From the IMG/VR virus record IMGVR_UViG_3300045988_165319, positions 1 to 31,874 of that record: a DNA stretch of 31,874 nucleotides; one strand, written 5' to 3'. Made by a program: the position numbers and the translations under genes. The notes below the pieces were generated by a model. The model saw only the letters and a list, made by a program, of their open reading frames with translations. It did not search any database and was not told the DNA's origin. This DNA comes from a virus. Shown piece by piece: positions 4,164 through 31,874 of this stretch (positions within the stretch are counted from its first letter, which is position 1; each line of letters starts with the position of its first letter).

Positions 4164-4189
4164 AACCATATCATCAAATGAAAGGAGGA

Positions 4190-4909
4190 ATGATGAGAGT
4201 TAATGAAAACCTAAGGAATGCTATCAGCCGAGTAGCTGACTATGAGTGCCTAAAACGAATTGAGGGCGAGGTAATCGGTTATTACCTCATGAAGGGCTAC
4301 ACCGTGCTACATAATAGCGTGGTCATCGATGAGGTGCTGAAGCCTAGCGATGAGGTCAAGCGACTGTTTAAGCGGGCGGGCATAGATGCTAGCGACGATG
4401 CTTATTGGGCGTTACTGGACATGCTTGATAAAGAACGTATTGCCGTTAAGATATGGCGCAAGCGTAACGGTCGGCTTACTTTAAGCAACACGATTGACAC
4501 TATGATTGCTTATCTTACCTGGCAGGATTTAGCCGGGGCGGTCACGCAGGATGATAACGACGAGGTCGTTTACGCCAAGTGCGAACGTGGCGTGCGAGCT
4601 ATGCACTATCTGCCTTACTGGGACGAGCTGGTGGCTGATGCTAAGGCTAAGGCTCACGAGAAGTTAGACAGAGAGTGTCGAGCAGTGGGCGAGAATAATT
4701 TATTGCCCGAACAAAAGCGAGTGATTTTCAGTCTAGCTCTGACCGATGCGCTTTACGATAACGTTTGCCGTAACGTCCTATATCTCAAAGAAAGTGAGAC
4801 TGTTTCGGTGGCTGATTACGAGTTTGGCTCTGCTTCGGCGCTGAGCGATATTGTCAGTAGTATTATCGGACACGAGATGAACATCGTTGCTGATGATATG
4901 GTGTTTTAG
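4190..4909 (+). CDS. Hypothetical protein (~239 aa)
   Basis: The ORF track starts at 4178 (MKGGMM), but that ATG lies inside the SD. Likely starts are the ATGATG at 4190 or 4193, downstream of AAAGGAGG. No domain recognised. Confidence 0.55.
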   Translation: MMRVNENLRNAISRVADYECLKRIEGEVIGYYLMKGYTVLHNSVVIDEVLKPSDEVKRLFKRAGIDASDDAYWALLDMLDKERIAVKIWRKRNGRLTLSNTIDTMIAYLTWQDLAGAVTQDDNDEVVYAKCERGVRAMHYLPYWDELVADAKAKAHEKLDRECRAVGENNLLPEQKRVIFSLALTDALYDNVCRNVLYLKESETVSVADYEFGSASALSDIVSSIIGHEMNIVADDMVF

Positions 4910-4919
4910 GGTAGTAAAA

Positions 4920-4946
4920 ATAGCCCTTCTGATTTAGAGGGGCTAT
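4920..4946 (+). other. Hairpin ATAGCCCTTCT-GATTT-AGAGGGGCTAT just after the stop of gene 4190-4909
   Basis: 11-bp stem with one G:U pair. An A-run precedes it and no U-run follows on the plus strand. Possibly a weak terminator or an RNA stability element. Confidence 0.4.
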
Positions 4947-5038
4947 CCCAGCCGGGCGACGTATTTACAATACGCTTAGTCATTCGACCGCTTACGGCTG
5001 TGCAACAGTACTTACGTCTGTAATATCACAATAATAAA

Positions 5039-5067: not shown

Positions 5068-5106
5068 CTATAGGTGCGAGTCATCTAATTTTGAAAGGAG
5101 ATCATT

Positions 5107-5424
5107 ATGACCGCAGATCAAAATACACCTGGTTTTATTGTACCAGATGTAGGTGAGAAGTCAAGATTTCATGTTGATACTTTCGACTCCACCATTCTTT
5201 ACGACAATTATCTAACAAGTAACCAGAAAGTTGTCTATTTCTATTATTGCCAGCACGACCAGATTAGCGAGACGGCTGAGCAAGTCGCCAGTTTTCTTTA
5301 TTTAGGCGTCAGCACCGTAAAAGAGGCATGGCGTCGGCTCGAGGAGGATGGTTATTTGAAACTTATTGAGAAAAGAGGGCGAGTGCGTACGTACGTCGCC
5401 ATTTTTAAGTGCGGGCTATGGTAA
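5107..5424 (+). CDS. Small winged-helix-like DNA-binding protein (105 aa), possibly replication-associated
   Basis: SD GAAAGGAG 7 nt upstream. SETAEQVASFLYLGVSTVKEAWRRLEEDGYL resembles an HTH/wHTH segment. It sits immediately upstream of the initiator gene. Confidence 0.45.
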   Translation: MTADQNTPGFIVPDVGEKSRFHVDTFDSTILYDNYLTSNQKVVYFYYCQHDQISETAEQVASFLYLGVSTVKEAWRRLEEDGYLKLIEKRGRVRTYVAIFKCGLW

Positions 5425-5441
5425 AGAATAAGGAGGGTAAT

Positions 5442-6500
5442 ATGTCAAGCCAAAATAAGCAAAACTATCTATTAACGCCACAATCGCTTTTTGCGTGTGA
5501 TAAGTTCAGCTTAGCCGAGAAGGTGGTATTGGCTAGGGCGATGAGTTTCGGTAATCATCGCTATTACGAGTCGGTCGAGAAGACAGCATCGTTCTTGGGT
5601 ATAAGCGAGTCGGCAGTTGAAAAGGCGAGGGCTAAGTTTATCAAGCTAGGCTACTTTAAGAAGGTCGGCTATAGCAACAATAGGGTAGTTTATGAAGTAT
5701 GTGACGACATTATTGAGAAAGATTGTCAAGTGAGAAGAATTACAAAGAATGACATTTCTTTTTGTCCGAAACAATCGCAGAATGTGCAACCAACAATCGC
5801 AGAATGTGCGATTTCTCAAAACGATACATATATATATAATAATAAAGAAGATAATAAAGATATAACCCCCCTAAACCCCCCCATGGGGGGTTGTGTGGGG
5901 CAAAAAGACAAAAATGATGAAAAAGGAGAGGTTGACAACATATTTAATTTATGGCTTAGCTGTTTTGGGCTTTCGGAGCGTAAATTGACGCCCGGTCGGC
6001 AAACGAAGATTAGGCGACGTTTGAAGGATTGCGGTAAAGACCAGCTGGAGCTGGCTATCCGCAACGCTAGCCAGGACTACTTCTACCGTGGCGACAATGA
6101 CCGTGGCTGGCAGGCGGACATCGACTACATCTGCCGTTCAGCCGAGATTGTCGAACGATTAGCAAACATGACACCTAGGAGTGAACGCCCTATGACCTGG
6201 TGGGAAGAGAAGCAACAACGTGAGCTTGAGCAGTGCGCTCCCCGCTACGGCGGGTCGGAGCGGGGGTATACCGTGGCGGAAGAGGACGACGACCTGGTTA
6301 TTGCCTCCCCCGACTCTGCTCCCAATCCCGATGCTAAACCGACACCCGAGAAAACAGATAAGCCAGATCAGGATGAAGCTCCTGTCCCGCTGGACATGGA
6401 TGAGCTAAGGAAGCGATTTCTAGAGGGTAAAGCCAGGGCTATCAAGAGAAGGGATGAGGCTTTGAGCAACGATGAGGCGAGAACGAAGGTTGGCTTATGA
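5442..6500 (+). CDS. Replication initiator / phage replisome organizer (N-terminal wHTH plus C-terminal DnaD-like conserved phage C-terminus)
   Basis: Likely start is the ATG at 5442, with AAGGAGGG 6 nt upstream (the track start at 5409 lacks an SD). The N-terminus LAEKVVLARAMSFGN...SFLGISESAVEKARAKFIKLGYF is wHTH-like. The C-terminus DNIFNLWLSCFG...LELAIRNASQDYFYRGDNDRGWQADIDYI matches the replisome-organizer C-terminal family. Iterons lie inside the gene. Confidence 0.65.
   Translation: MSSQNKQNYLLTPQSLFACDKFSLAEKVVLARAMSFGNHRYYESVEKTASFLGISESAVEKARAKFIKLGYFKKVGYSNNRVVYEVCDDIIEKDCQVRRITKNDISFCPKQSQNVQPTIAECAISQNDTYIYNNKEDNKDITPLNPPMGGCVGQKDKNDEKGEVDNIFNLWLSCFGLSERKLTPGRQTKIRRRLKDCGKDQLELAIRNASQDYFYRGDNDRGWQADIDYICRSAEIVERLANMTPRSERPMTWWEEKQQRELEQCAPRYGGSERGYTVAEEDDDLVIASPDSAPNPDAKPTPEKTDKPDQDEAPVPLDMDELRKRFLEGKARAIKRRDEALSNDEARTKVGL
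5771..5809 (+). promoter_or_regulatory. Iteron pair ACAATCGCAGAATGTGC x2 with 22-bp periodicity (putative origin inside the initiator gene)
   Basis: Two exact 17-mers at 5771-5787 and 5793-5809. They are followed by a ~55-bp AT-rich tract and the palindrome CCCCCCATGGGGGG. Confidence 0.55.
5877..5890. promoter_or_regulatory. Perfect 14-bp palindrome CCCCCCATGGGGGG next to the AT-rich tract (origin-associated)
   Basis: Read directly. It lies at the end of the AT-rich stretch 5815-5870. Confidence 0.5.
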
Positions 6501-6592
6501 CCACTAAAAACGCCACTAGACGCATTCTGAGGCACTTTCTAGCCGTTTTTATAGCCAAGATGGGTATTTACCCTACTTTGGGGCTAAAACGT

Positions 6593-6653
6593 CACACAGA
6601 GGCTCTGGTGCGGTCTGAGGGGGTGTTTTGTGGGAGGGTAGGTCTTAGCATTC
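6593..6653 (+). repeat. Conserved G-rich element, copy A (CACAGAGGCTCTGGTGCGGTCTGAGGGGGTGTTTTGTGGGAGGGTAGG)
   Basis: Near-identical copies at 15313-15364 and 31182-31229. The pseudo-ORFs translating as HTEALVRSEGVFCGR are by-products of this repeat. Confidence 0.85.
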
Positions 6654-6692
6654 ACGAGATTGCTTTTTGCCCGCCCCGAATTAGCTCGGGAT

Positions 6693-6721
6693 TTGACAAA
6701 GCGGTATCGTCTTGCTACAAT
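6693..6721 (+). promoter_or_regulatory. Early promoter P2 (TTGACA-N17-TACAAT) with the conserved leader
   Basis: Consensus -35, 17-nt spacer, TACAAT, then ATCATCAATGAAAGGAGGAATGATGAG. Confidence 0.7.
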
Positions 6722-6746
6722 CGCCGTATCATCAATGAAAGGAGGA

Positions 6747-7205
6747 ATGATGAGTAAAAATAAGGGCGTCGTCTATCAGTTGATAGCTTTCAATCGGCAG
6801 ACGAAGGAGGAAGTCGTGGTGGGCTACGGTAGTCTCAACGAGATTTGCGAGCTGATCTACACCGACTACAACTACGATGGGGAGATTACGCTGGCTGACG
6901 AGGATGCTTACGATGCCGTCGTCTCGGTTATTGAGGCGATCCGCAATTCATTGCCGACCGTGGGGCGTAAGGAGGGCGGTTATGACGTGCCGAGCGATAT
7001 CGTGGAAGACATACGGCAAAGCGTCGATGTTGCCGTTACGGACTACGTCGCTCACGCCCATAGGTTGCTGTCGGCTCGAAGTCGTCACCCTGAGCGCACT
7101 AAAGTAGAGCGGTTTAACCAGTACTTTGACAGGATGATAGCCGGCTTTAAGCTTTGTGAGGATAACCCGAGCCTTGTCCATGAGGAAGAAAAGTCGGGTG
7201 ACTAA
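6747..7205 (+). CDS. Hypothetical protein (~152 aa)
   Basis: Start at the ATGATG at 6747 or 6750, downstream of AAAGGAGG. The track start at 6660 is upstream of the promoter. Confidence 0.5.
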   Translation: MMSKNKGVVYQLIAFNRQTKEEVVVGYGSLNEICELIYTDYNYDGEITLADEDAYDAVVSVIEAIRNSLPTVGRKEGGYDVPSDIVEDIRQSVDVAVTDYVAHAHRLLSARSRHPERTKVERFNQYFDRMIAGFKLCEDNPSLVHEEEKSGD

Positions 7206-7668
7206 AGTGCCCATAGCCGGGTATATCGTCAAGTTGGACGATGGGGCTGAGGTGTCTCTGACCGCTCCGCTTGATTGCCGATCTAATCGGTCAAGCCTAA
7301 ATAGCGTTTTACGTCGCTATCTCGCCAAGAACTATCCGGGGCTCCGCTCTTCGGCGACTGACTACCAGGTGGTTATCGATGTGGAGGCGACGGCTAAGAA
7401 GGTCGAGGAATTGGTAACCTATCGGCTACGTCGGCAGGGCTTTACGGTCAAGCGGGAGGCTAGTGTCGGCGGTGTGGTCTTGGACTATTACAAGCCCGCC
7501 GACAAGAATAAACCGACTGGACACCACCGTTTCGATCCGCTATATGCCACCTATCACACTGTTTGGGGTGTAGATGGAGTGGAGTGCGGTAGGGTCTGCT
7601 ACGACATGGACGGCGGTAAGCATGGCGAGGTATTCGTCGACCCTGTTTATTTAGAGGATATTTACTAA
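7156..7668 (+). CDS. Hypothetical protein; start uncertain (alternative starts at 7180 ATG or 7198 GTG)
   Basis: Long ORF that overlaps the previous gene by 50 nt if started at 7156. AGGAAG lies 9 nt before the GTG at 7198. Confidence 0.4.
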   Translation: MRITRALSMRKKSRVTKVPIAGYIVKLDDGAEVSLTAPLDCRSNRSSLNSVLRRYLAKNYPGLRSSATDYQVVIDVEATAKKVEELVTYRLRRQGFTVKREASVGGVVLDYYKPADKNKPTGHHRFDPLYATYHTVWGVDGVECGRVCYDMDGGKHGEVFVDPVYLEDIY

Positions 7669-7681
7669 GAAAGGAGAAGAC

Positions 7682-7876
7682 ATGAAAGATAAAGTGAAAG
7701 CCAAGTGTAAAGAGATAATGGCTAAATTAAAGAGCAATAAAGTCAATGGGGCGGTCAAGGTTGGGCTGGCTATCTATTTAGCGTTTTGTGTGTTAGTGCT
7801 GGTGCTCGGTTGCGTGATTTTAGCGCAATCTATCGGCTTTATGAAGGCTATCTTGATGCCGTGGCGTCGGCGGTAG
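7682..7876 (+). CDS. Small membrane protein (64 aa, one TM helix)
   Basis: SD AAAGGAGAAG 4 nt upstream. Hydrophobic segment VGLAIYLAFCVLVLVLGCVILA. Confidence 0.5.
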   Translation: MKDKVKAKCKEIMAKLKSNKVNGAVKVGLAIYLAFCVLVLVLGCVILAQSIGFMKAILMPWRRR

Positions 7877-7897
7877 TTTGAGGGAGAGGAGGTTATT

Positions 7898-8518
7898 ATG
7901 CAGACACCTGAAGGAAGAGCTAAAGCGCTCAAAACGATGAGGGAGCGTTACGGCGATGATTACTTTAAGCGAGTAGGTCGGCTCGGCGGTTCGAGCTATC
8001 ACTCCAAGCCCCGTGGCTTCGCTTCCGACCCTGAGCAGGCTCGGATAGCGGGGCGCAAGGGCGGAGCTAAGTCACGTCGTCAACGTGATAGTGCATATAT
8101 CCTGCCAGGCTCGTTAGACAGCGAGACAGTGCGACGGATCATGTGGCAGGCGATTAGTCAAAATCGGTCGCTTTATAAGTCGATTAAGTCCATTAACGCT
8201 GACATGTTTAGCGCCTCAAAGAATGATATCGTTTGGGTGACTGAAGATGTGGTGCGTGAATACGTGGGGTGGACGGTTAGCCCAAATAGCATTATTAAAC
8301 AGGGCGTGCTTCGACATGGGGTGGATAAGCCTGTCGTCTACTGGTATCGGGTGATATGTGCCCACGACATCAAGAATAGTAATATCAATATCATCCTAAT
8401 ACTGAACATTGGCGACACTACTTATTCGCTTTATTGGGACGTTACCACCGAGCGCCCCGCCCGTCTGGGGCGAGCTAAAGACATTAAGTGCGCTGAGACT
8501 GAGTTATCCACACCTTGA
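7898..8518 (+). CDS. Protein with an N-terminal KGG-repeat (stress-protein-like) domain (206 aa)
   Basis: The N-terminus ERYGDDYFKRVGRLGG...GFASDPEQARIAGRKGGAKS is paralogous to the 77-aa protein at 22911-23144. SD GGAGAGGAGG. The last codons ELSTP lie inside the repeated promoter module. Confidence 0.55.
   Translation: MQTPEGRAKALKTMRERYGDDYFKRVGRLGGSSYHSKPRGFASDPEQARIAGRKGGAKSRRQRDSAYILPGSLDSETVRRIMWQAISQNRSLYKSIKSINADMFSASKNDIVWVTEDVVREYVGWTVSPNSIIKQGVLRHGVDKPVVYWYRVICAHDIKNSNINIILILNIGDTTYSLYWDVTTERPARLGRAKDIKCAETELSTP
8504..8512 (+). promoter_or_regulatory. DnaA-box-like TTATCCACA upstream of P3
   Basis: Exact 9-mer read directly. Confidence 0.45.
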
Positions 8519-8543
8519 TGTAAATGTGGCTATGCTATAGGGC

Positions 8544-8572
8544 TTGCGTCTTGGGGTGGGGTGAGATATAGT
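8544..8572 (+). promoter_or_regulatory. Early promoter P3 (TTGCGT-N17-TATAGT) with the conserved leader
   Basis: The segment 8500-8570 is about 90% identical to 10882-10952. Confidence 0.65.
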
Positions 8573-8598
8573 GTGTGTATCATCAAATGAAAGGAGGA

Positions 8599-8775
8599 AT
8601 GATGAGAAGCAGTAAACTCAACTTTCACCGAGTTGGGGGACGGGTGGTTATCGAGCGAGACGATGATTACTTTCTGAAGTCCGACATTGTCGGCTTAAAG
8701 ATTAGCCTGGGGCTGATAATTGCGCTGTTTGCGCCATTAGCTATCCATGCTGTCGGGGCGTTGTTCGTGGAGTAA
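8599..8775 (+). CDS. Small membrane protein (~58 aa)
   Basis: ATGATG start after AAAGGAGG. Hydrophobic C-terminal helix GLIIALFAPLAIHAVGALFV. Confidence 0.5.
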   Translation: MMRSSKLNFHRVGGRVVIERDDDYFLKSDIVGLKISLGLIIALFAPLAIHAVGALFVE

Positions 8776-10489: not shown

Positions 10490-10900
10490 ATGAATGATGA
10501 CGATTTTGCTAAGCCGACAGACGGCATCCTGGGTGACGGGGTGCTGTCTTTTCGGTTAGCCCAGCTTTATGTTGGTGAGCCTAGGTATCACTGGGTCTAT
10601 CGCAACTATCTGGATCGCTTTACCCTATATCCTGTCGCTAGTGACAAATATCGAGGGCTACTGATTGTGCAGGTGGGCTTTGGGCGGGTGAGGCTACGGA
10701 CTCGAACGGGGGCGTGGGCTACCGAGCGATTGCGCCATATATCGATAGCTTGCGCTAAGCTACATAGTCACTTCAATTACGCTGTAGCTATCGTTACTAC
10801 TGCCGAAGACGCCAAGGCTATCTATCAATCATATGTTGACGGGACGAGCTATATCGATAACTTGACGGCTAATGCCTGCGGTGAGTTATCCACAGCTTGA
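10490..10900 (+). CDS. Hypothetical protein (136 aa)
   Basis: The ORF ends with ELSTA inside the repeated promoter module, paralleling the ELSTP ending of 7898-8518. Confidence 0.5.
   Translation: MNDDDFAKPTDGILGDGVLSFRLAQLYVGEPRYHWVYRNYLDRFTLYPVASDKYRGLLIVQVGFGRVRLRTRTGAWATERLRHISIACAKLHSHFNYAVAIVTTAEDAKAIYQSYVDGTSYIDNLTANACGELSTA
10886..10894 (+). promoter_or_regulatory. DnaA-box-like TTATCCACA upstream of P4
   Basis: Exact 9-mer read directly. Confidence 0.45.
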
Positions 10901-10925
10901 TGTAAATGTGGCTATGCTATAGGGC

Positions 10926-10954
10926 TTGCGTCTTAAGGTGGGGTGAGGTATGAT
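10926..10954 (+). promoter_or_regulatory. Early promoter P4 (TTGCGT-N17-TATGAT) with the conserved leader
   Basis: Same module as P3. Leader is TATCGTCAATGAAAGGAGGAATGATGAG. Confidence 0.65.
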
Positions 10955-10979
10955 ACTTGTATCGTCAATGAAAGGAGGA

Positions 10980-11330
10980 ATGATGAGTGAAAATAAGGAC
11001 AGTGGCGACATGGAGCAACTGCTCATAGCGATGAGTGCTACGTGCACGTTGCTGGAATGTGCAATAGCTGATCATAGCAACAATCATAGCCTGGTAGGGA
11101 TGTGCGCCATAGCTAACGAGCTTCAATGTCACGCCCGTGCTGTCTATAAGGCACTTACTATGGACAAAGTGGGCAAGTCGAACAGTGGGAGATTTAGCCT
11201 CGAGGAGAGTATTGACGAGCTGGAGGAGTTGATAACCGAGGCTGAGGCGTCAATGCTTATGAATAAGCTCGTGGATGGATGTAGGGCGATGTCCGGCGCC
11301 GGTGAGTCGAAGGACGATGATGGCGAGTAA
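10980..11330 (+). CDS. Hypothetical acidic protein (~116 aa)
   Basis: ATGATG start after AAAGGAGG. The C-terminus is Asp/Glu-rich. Confidence 0.5.
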   Translation: MMSENKDSGDMEQLLIAMSATCTLLECAIADHSNNHSLVGMCAIANELQCHARAVYKALTMDKVGKSNSGRFSLEESIDELEELITEAEASMLMNKLVDGCRAMSGAGESKDDDGE

Positions 11331-15312: not shown

Positions 15313-15364
15313 CGTCACACAGAGGCTCTGGTGCGGTCTGAGGGGGTGTTTTGTGGGAGGGGTG
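15313..15364 (+). repeat. Conserved G-rich element, copy B, between the terminator and the HNH gene stop
   Basis: CACGTCACACAGAGGCTCTGGTGCGGTCTGAGGGGGTGTTTTGTGGGAGGGG. See copies A and C. Confidence 0.85.
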
Positions 15365-31181: not shown

Positions 31182-31229
31182 ACAGAGGCTCTGGTGCGGT
31201 CTGAGGGGGTATTTTGTGGGAGGGTAGGT
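31182..31229 (+). repeat. Conserved G-rich element, copy C
   Basis: TACAGAGGCTCTGGTGCGGTCTGAGGGGGTATTTTGTGGGAGGGTAGG. Confidence 0.85.

Positions 31230-31815: not shown

Positions 31816-31874
<59 letters not shown>

Follow-up and report, generated by a model that had tools for sequence, protein, structure and literature searches.

A probable replication origin within the initiator gene of a siphovirus-like phage

We analysed a 31,874-bp stretch of viral DNA, positions 1 to 31,874 of the IMG/VR record IMGVR_UViG_3300045988_165319 (hereafter the window). One of its genes, at 5442-6500 on the plus strand, encodes a replication initiator of 352 amino acids (aa). We conclude that positions 5770-5900 are very likely the theta-type replication origin of this phage, located in the part of its own initiator gene that encodes a linker between two protein domains. 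An embedded origin of the lambda type has at least two direct repeats (iterons) with a helical phasing of about 21-23 bp, an AT-rich unwinding element beside the iterons, a position in the linker-coding DNA of the initiator open reading frame (ORF), and an iteron sequence that co-varies with the DNA-binding domain of the initiator; we found each of these here. The original prediction, which was made from the letters of this stretch, had placed an origin-like structure inside the initiator gene, and the anatomy of the sequence, its position over the linker, its conservation in the family and the precedent of phage lambda all support that view.

Iterons, AT-rich tract and C/G element

The candidate origin begins with an exact 18-bp repeat, AACAATCGCAGAATGTGC, whose copies at 5770-5787 and 5792-5809 are both on the plus strand and start at nucleotide 329 of the initiator gene. 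A 17-mer, ACAATCGCAGAATGTGC, had been reported at 5771-5787 and 5793-5809; these positions are right, but the length is not, because the exact repeat extends to 18 bp. Allowing for up to three mismatches, we found no further copy on either strand of the window, and no match to the iteron arose in any of 100 dinucleotide shuffles, so the repeat is far beyond what chance would produce. The iteron pair is one of three exact direct repeats of at least 17 bp that are spaced within 300 bp in the window. Because the period of 22 bp is not a multiple of three, the copies are translated in different frames, the first as KQSQNV and the second as TIAECA, which excludes a peptide repeat as the explanation. 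Each copy is part of a 22-bp unit on the plus strand. In unit 1 (5770-5791) the repeat is followed by a 4-bp spacer, while in unit 2 (5792-5813) the repeat carries a dyad: the second copy together with the next four bases forms AATCGCA (5795-5801) and TGCGATT (5807-5813) around GAATG.

The core of the iteron, ACAATCGC, occurs four times in the whole window, always on the plus strand and within 1.25 kb (5480-6724). Two of these copies are in the iterons and the two extra ones lie at 5480-5487 and 6717-6724; four copies were reached in 1 of 100 shuffles, and we make no claim about the extra half-sites. No DnaA box was found at the origin region; the exact TTATCCACA sites of the window, at 60, 8504 and 10886, belong to another repeat element, described below.

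Next to the iterons, at 5810-5865 on the plus strand, is a presumed DNA-unwinding element of 56 bp with 84% A+T, which bears out the earlier description of some 55 bp of roughly 85% A+T after the repeats. It is the most AT-rich 56-nucleotide stretch of the window (GC fraction 0.16, compared with 0.494 overall) and, in nearest-neighbour calculations over 40, 50 and 60 bp, the window's least stable duplex (z of 4.9, 4.6 and 4.2, respectively). The stretches with the next-lowest stability are nearly all intergenic or microsatellites at the contig ends; the AT-rich tract is inside a coding region. It includes a box that is conserved in the family, TCAAAAYGATACATATA, and a tandem ATAATAAAGA at 5839-5848 and 5851-5860. 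A promoter scan placed one promoter-like site in the tract (5813-5840), and gave nine sites for the region compared with an expectation of 5.1 ± 2.1, a result that is uninformative.

The tract is followed at 5866-5900 (plus strand) by a GC-rich element, presumed to be an origin boundary or a hairpin, which reads C6-TAAA-C7-AT-G6-TTGTGT-G4 and which we call the C/G element. The perfect palindrome attributed to it, CCCCCCATGGGGGG, is exact and lies at 5877-5890. Its description as C6-AT-G6 is accurate for the palindrome itself but understates the C-runs: the left run really has seven C, and another C6 is present at 5866-5871. The window has a single C6-NN-G6 site (the two listed matches overlap), where 0.06 would be expected by chance. 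As single-stranded DNA, the segment 5760-5910 folds better than 200 of 200 shuffles (z of -3.4), with hairpins that fall at the second iteron and at the C/G element. An Rfam scan of the origin region gave no match to an RNA family. We also considered the ATG of the palindrome as an internal start codon and rejected it, as ACG, TTA or TAA is found in relatives.

The initiator and its linker

Translation showed the ORF at 5442-6500 and the peptide KEDNKDITPLNPPMGGCVGQKDKNDEKGE encoded across the candidate origin to be as the original prediction had them. A ribosome-binding site, AAGGAGG, lies 5 nt upstream of the ORF, whose stop codon overlaps the start (ATG at 6497) of the ORF that follows. The protein matches PHROG 345, 'replication initiation O-like', with an E-value of 3.7e-17, and several other PHROGs annotated as replication initiator or DnaD-like loader; we found 42 homologues in a large protein collection. 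It had been described as a winged helix-turn-helix (wHTH), DnaD-like initiator. The winged helix is borne out by an AlphaFold2 model, while the likeness to DnaD consists of a match to PHROG 186 ('DnaD-like helicase loader', E-value 2.7e-8) that is weaker than the match to PHROG 345. Searching Pfam with the whole initiator returned nothing at E ≤ 0.01 except a sub-threshold match to a NUMOD-like helix-turn-helix, and searching with the separate domains returned nothing at E ≤ 1; NCBIfam likewise yielded no significant family for the full-length protein or the individual domains.

The AlphaFold2 model was built with an alignment of 19 sequences. Its N-terminal domain (N-domain; residues 1-102, encoded by 5442-5747 on the plus strand) has three helices followed by two strands, with predicted local distance difference test (pLDDT) values of 74-89. 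The fold itself covers residues 10-100 or so, with helices at 24-34, 45-52 and 56-69 and strands at 72-78 and 81-86 (pLDDT 81-89); that is, the model has the helix-turn-helix and the subsequent beta-hairpin wing that define a winged helix. When the domain was compared with the PDB by Foldseek, all of the top matches were wHTH DNA binders, including RepA of pSK41 and pTZ2162, at E-values of 0.02-0.1. No Foldseek match to the PDB reached E ≤ 0.001, and the domain therefore cannot be assigned to a particular initiator family; a profile search of the PDB gave only weak matches to wHTH regulators of the MarR/AdcR type (E-values 0.09-0.35). We presume that the N-domain is the iteron-binding, specificity-determining domain.

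Residues 103-158 (5748-5915, plus strand) have pLDDT values below 50 and lie between two folded domains, in agreement with the suggestion that the stretch encoded here is an inter-domain linker. The iterons, the AT-rich tract and the C/G element (5770-5900) are all within the DNA that encodes this linker. The conserved C-terminal domain (C-domain; residues 159-245, encoded by 5916-6176 on the plus strand) is modelled as helices over residues 159-241 and contains the motif YRGDNDRGWQADIDYI. It is near-invariant in the family, and we presume it to be a domain that recruits the replisome or the helicase. The remainder, a variable C-terminal tail (6177-6497, plus strand), appears in the alignment as an acidic, proline-rich segment and then a terminal helix; in the model it is largely of low confidence and ends in a helix.

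Repeats and initiator types among relatives

We obtained DNA for 15 distinct sequences of the close family from IMG/VR, ENA and JGI metagenomes, and searched the 110 nt ahead of a conserved box, GATACATATA, for the best direct repeat. All 15 have exactly two repeats with 22-bp spacing at the same position, and the register of the repeats relative to the box is identical in every sequence. The original prediction had named the absence of iterons from relatives with the same initiator as evidence against an origin, and no such absence was seen; it had also proposed that an alignment might show iteron number to vary among close relatives, which it does not, the number always being two.

The N-domain falls into five sequence types in this family, each of which has its own repeat in the same geometry. 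The repeat is AACAATCGCAGAATGTGC in type A, a diverged form of it (TCGCAG-GCGTGC; AAGTCGCAGAGCGTGC / CAATCGCAGGGCGTGC) in type A', AAAAACTGCAAA in type B, AAGAAGTCGGAATGCCCGACTC in type C and AAGAAGTGAGCTCAGACCAAAC in type D. Iteron identity is 0.40 across types, compared with 0.89 within types. Dyads are present in the iterons of type C (AGTCGG-N5-CCGACT), of type D (TGAGCTCA) and in the second copy of type A (AATCGCA-N5-TGCGATT), an arrangement that would fit binding by a dimer. Within type A, the same substitution is found in both copies of the repeat: GTGC has become ATGC in loci L004 and L030, and AT has become GC in L023.

Repeats are also found in distant relatives that share only the YRGDNDRGW C-domain. 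Seven of the eight have tandem repeats of their own directly upstream of this domain: two copies of 24 bp in L024; three copies of a 24-bp unit, at 24- and 54-bp spacing, in L020; three to four copies of about 22 bp in L035; five copies of 12 bp in L034; and four to five copies of 11 bp in L011, L025 and L036. In L024, L025 and L036 the repeats give way to an AT-rich tract.

The DNA on the other side of the iterons behaves differently. Starting at TCAAAAYGATACATATA, across the C/G element and as far as the beginning of the C-domain, it is almost identical in all five types. We measured synonymous-codon identity between types in a codon alignment with one representative per type, using the codons for identical amino acids. 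This identity is 0.88-0.89 over 5811-5975 (0.89 over 5811-5900); for the C-domain it falls to 0.76 and for the N-domain to 0.57 (Fisher p = 4e-5, for pairs that are not independent). The C-domain is the more strongly conserved segment of the protein, yet its synonymous-codon identity is lower than that of 5811-5975. We set aside the ungapped cross-type identities of the AT and palindrome segment (0.64 and 0.51), which were distorted by a 3-nt indel in type D.

A stem of at least 5 bp between the C-run and the G-run is kept in all 15 relatives, around the centres AT, CAC, TTA, TTAA and TAA. The C/G element occurs in two forms: C6-TAAA-C7-AYG-G6, which encodes PLNPPMGGCVG, and C6-TTA-C6-TTA-G6, which encodes PLTPLRGAVAV. 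The runs are read in different registers in the two forms and the peptides differ, with the frame restored within the same 35 nt. In other words, the runs of DNA and the continuity of the ORF have been kept while the peptide has not, and nothing else points so clearly to selection acting on the DNA itself. Judged from these sequence comparisons, the AT-rich tract and the C/G element are under constraint at the DNA level.

To relate the initiator tail to the genes that follow it, we compared positions 6177-8518 of the window with loci L001-L008, L010, L022 and L023. The tail co-varies with the downstream module: initiators of 352-355 aa are accompanied by ORFs of 86, 181, 170 and 206 aa, and those of 292 aa by ORF94 and RecT, with YqaJ after RecT in L023. 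This pattern suggests that the tail may contact a partner encoded downstream. The N-domain and iterons of type A occur with both tails and with both palindrome variants, which indicates recombination within the gene.

Directly upstream of the initiator gene is a small winged-helix ORF of 105 aa (5107-5424, plus strand). Its product is 36% identical to the N-domain of the initiator over 33 aa (E-value 7e-5) and also weakly resembles the initiator PHROGs 186 and 270. All relatives, whatever their iteron type, conserve it at 69-94%.

Comparison with known origins

The origin of phage lambda is centrally placed in the O gene, at nucleotides 348-474 of 897, and has four 18-bp iterons with short spacers, about 87 bp in all, joined to a 38-bp AT-rich tract (PMC3349717; PMC7466680); the iterons are upstream of the AT-rich tract in the direction of transcription (PMC3349717). 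The candidate origin of the window shares this plan closely. It too is in the middle of the initiator gene, between the portions for a presumed DNA-binding N-domain and a presumed partner-binding C-domain; it too has 18-bp iterons with a period of about 22 bp and internal dyads; and its AT-rich tract is immediately downstream of the iterons, so that the order of the elements is identical. In both phages the gene that follows is closely coupled to that of the initiator. As among the lambdoid phages (lambda and the Stx phages P27 and 933W), the iteron sequence differs where the N-domains of the initiators differ. The window departs from lambda in having an AT-rich tract of 56 bp rather than 38 bp, a conserved C-run/G-run hairpin element after that tract, and an initiator without a match to the Pfam family Phage_rep_O, and from lambdoid phages in probably having a host outside the proteobacteria.

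The placement of an origin within the initiator gene had been called established for lambdoid phages and many Firmicutes phages, and the literature agrees, with the lambda origin in O and oriL of SPP1 in gene 38. The latter, within the gene for the replisome organiser G38P, consists of direct repeats together with an unwinding element rich in AT (PMC6316719). The window likewise has direct repeats along with an AT-rich element within the gene of the presumed origin-binding protein. Unlike SPP1 with its oriR, the window has no second origin copy, as there are no further copies of the iteron. The window protein itself also differs from the Phage_rep_org_N family of Firmicutes phages in having no match to it. 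One relative, P0042, has the same C-domain fused to an N-domain of the Phage_rep_org_N family (26 bits, with a cut-off of 23.3), and its linker contains 11-bp repeats and then an AT-rich tract.

Plasmids of the RepA_N type, such as pSK41 and pTZ2162, carry origin repeats in the middle portion of the rep gene. The window resembles them in the winged-helix N-domain, with weak Foldseek matches to 4pql, 4pt7 and 5kbj. This structural likeness is weak (E-values 0.036-0.05) and many unrelated wHTH regulators score alike; moreover, there is no match at the sequence level, and the element in the window is a phage rather than a plasmid.

Mechanism and alternative explanations

If 5770-5900 is the origin, we infer that replication is initiated through iteron binding by the N-domain, melting of the AT-rich tract and recruitment of a helicase. 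The N-domain, probably as dimers, would bind the two 18-bp iterons, which at a distance of 22 bp, or about two helical turns, would present themselves on the same face of the DNA. The resulting nucleoprotein complex would stress and melt the adjoining 56-bp AT-rich tract. The palindrome of C- and G-runs after this tract would bound the bubble or serve as a signal in single-stranded form, and may extrude as a hairpin once it is single-stranded. The C-domain and the variable tail would recruit the helicase, either through a phage partner from the translationally coupled downstream genes or by taking the host's helicase directly.

Several observations weigh against an origin at this site. The window has two iterons, compared with four in lambda and six in the Stx phages. 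In lambda, however, a pair of iterons, with the AT-rich tract, is the minimal fragment for unwinding and in vitro replication, according to PMC7466680 (citing Dodson 1986 and Wickner & McKenney 1987), so two copies are no objection. No O, DnaD or replisome-organiser model of Pfam or NCBIfam matches the initiator; that is, curated models place it neither in the lambda O family (Phage_rep_O) nor in the DnaD-like and replisome-organiser families (DnaB_2, Phage_rep_org_N and TIGR01714). Among the gene products of the window we recognised no helicase, helicase loader, primase or polymerase. Nor is the site marked out by GC skew, whose cumulative minimum is at about 3.3-3.7 kb; this minimum coincides with a switch in gene orientation and therefore says nothing about the origin. 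Because the N-domain adjoins the iterons, linkage alone could account for part of their co-variation. Finally, the gene is clearly mosaic, and the conservation of its central DNA could partly reflect recent recombination; recombination and constraint are not exclusive causes.

The repeats might instead form an operator, by which the initiator or the upstream wHTH protein (5107-5424) autoregulates or roadblocks transcription, with the AT-rich tract incidental. Proteins with a wHTH are commonly repressors, and the conserved small wHTH ORF with its weak likeness to the N-domain is directly upstream of the initiator gene; furthermore, plasmid iterons often serve for both origin function and autoregulation. 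An operator 330 nt inside a coding region, beside the least stable duplex and a conserved GC hairpin, would nevertheless be atypical. In the upstream ORF, type A shares 79-80% identity with types B and C, and 69-70% with type D, even though the iterons differ completely, and hence this ORF does not co-vary with the iterons. Distant relatives with four to five tandem repeats of 11-12 bp and then AT-rich tracts have what is typical of origins, and we consider it quite improbable that the repeats are an operator. It is also quite improbable, in our judgement, that the AT and C/G segment is a recombination junction, a shared linker across which N- and C-terminal halves are swapped, and that the 22-bp duplication is a tolerated product of slippage. 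The mosaic structure of the gene favours a junction, because the type A N-domain and iterons are found alongside either form (352-aa or 292-aa) and either palindrome variant, and the type of tail follows the downstream module. Random slippage, however, would not leave five independent repeats with two copies, a 22-bp period and the same register, and the parallel changes in both copies, together with C/G runs that persist across a change of frame, indicate selection on the DNA. One site can in any case be both a recombination junction and an origin, as lambdoid origins are.

A remaining explanation gives the DNA no role and attributes these features to the protein or the RNA, either as a flexible linker of low complexity or as a site of ribosome pausing or slippage at C7/G6. 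The region does encode a linker rich in Lys, Asn and Asp whose structure is predicted with low confidence, and homopolymer runs can promote slippage. Against this, the two copies of the iteron give unrelated peptides owing to the 22-bp period, and the peptide of the C/G element differs completely between variants in which the DNA runs persist. Relatives have ACG, TTA or TAA in place of the central ATG, so there is no internal start, and no Rfam family matches the region. We regard an explanation of this kind as highly improbable.

A bolder form of the origin hypothesis is that the initiator gene (1.06 kb) and its embedded origin make up a self-contained minimal replicon of a phage family of Saccharibacteria, which belong to the Candidate Phyla Radiation (CPR), with at least five naturally exchangeable initiator/iteron cassettes and with the C/G hairpin as an undescribed but essential origin element. 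In that case the hairpin might signal helicase loading or priming, or might act as a clamp to give unwinding its direction. We find this combined claim doubtful.

Phage context, host and other elements of the window

The window represents a siphovirus-like tailed phage, with genes for a large terminase, a portal, a major head protein and a tape measure protein; it also encodes an SH3_5 endolysin, a ParB-methylase fusion and a second methylase. None of 50,697 GenBank phage records exceeds 35% identity to its large terminase. A tblastn search of these records with the initiator gave no match, nor did a blastn search of the GenBank phages with positions 5100-6800. Close relatives are present on two contigs (L009 and L010; CALIXD01) that were binned in a Candidatus Saccharibacteria metagenome-assembled genome, and on L011 (DATFHU010000004.1, 169 kb, Saccharimonadales) the coding sequence of a C-domain with 51% identity is preceded by 11-bp repeats. 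The last is a large contig and probably chromosomal; it may represent either a prophage or some related replicon within a CPR bacterium. The phage lineage of the window may infect Saccharibacteria, although the binning of phage contigs is no proof of host. Both ends of the window consist of the same microsatellite, (AGT)18 at 2-55 and (AGT)19 at 31818-31874, which suggests either a circular genome or an assembly break at the repeat; relatives are 39-40 kb.

Several other elements were noted in the window. At 4910-5028, on the minus strand, there is a match to the Rfam DUF3800-I RNA (RF02969) with 76.1 bits, compared with a gathering score of 44.2. It lies in the intergenic gap between the ORF at 4178-4909 and the wHTH ORF at 5107-5424, on the opposite strand, and a promoter-like site is found upstream of it at 5164-5137 (minus strand). 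A second element is present in three copies on the plus strand, at 6596-6638, 15319-15361 and 31182-31224, which share a near-invariant core of 43 nt, ACAGAGGCTCTGGTGCGGTCTGAGGGGGTnTTTTGTGGGAGGG. Ahead of copies 2 and 3 there is a terminator-like hairpin with a T-run. Copy 1 is inside the 86-aa 'ORF' at 6497-6757, directly after the initiator gene, so this ORF may be partly non-coding. The element is also found in L003; its RNA fold is not significant (z of -0.7) and it has no Rfam match.

Another element of about 100 nt is present in three copies on the plus strand, at approximately 57-160, 8501-8600 and 10883-10985, upstream of ORFs that start at 174, 8575 and 10950. Each copy starts with the exact DnaA-box-like TTATCCACA, of which three copies were seen in 0 of 100 shuffles, and continues with CTTGATGTAAATGTGGCTATGCT...ATAGGGCTTGCGTCTT and then a ribosome-binding site; possibly the element is a promoter or leader that recurs. 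Finally, an exact 17-bp direct repeat, TCATCAGGCTTATGCTC, occurs at 1290-1306 and 1332-1348 with 42-bp spacing, inside an ORF on the minus strand (698-1597). This ORF weakly matches a small terminase subunit (phrog_1459), and the repeat may therefore be a pac-type site.

Implications

The design of the lambda origin, with its place in the initiator gene, 18-bp iterons at a 22-bp pitch and an AT-rich tract, appears to recur in a lineage without cultured relatives. The architecture is of a known kind and mechanistically offers little that is new, with the possible exception of the conserved C/G hairpin element. What raises its interest, besides that element and the possible CPR host, is a clean natural series of specificity swaps: five types of N-domain are each paired with an iteron of their own, and each initiator is predicted to bind only its own iterons. 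If the host assignment holds, the compact cassette of initiator and origin would be an obvious starting point for a replicating vector; if the bolder form of the hypothesis is also right, it could underpin vectors for Saccharibacteria, a group with almost no genetic tools.

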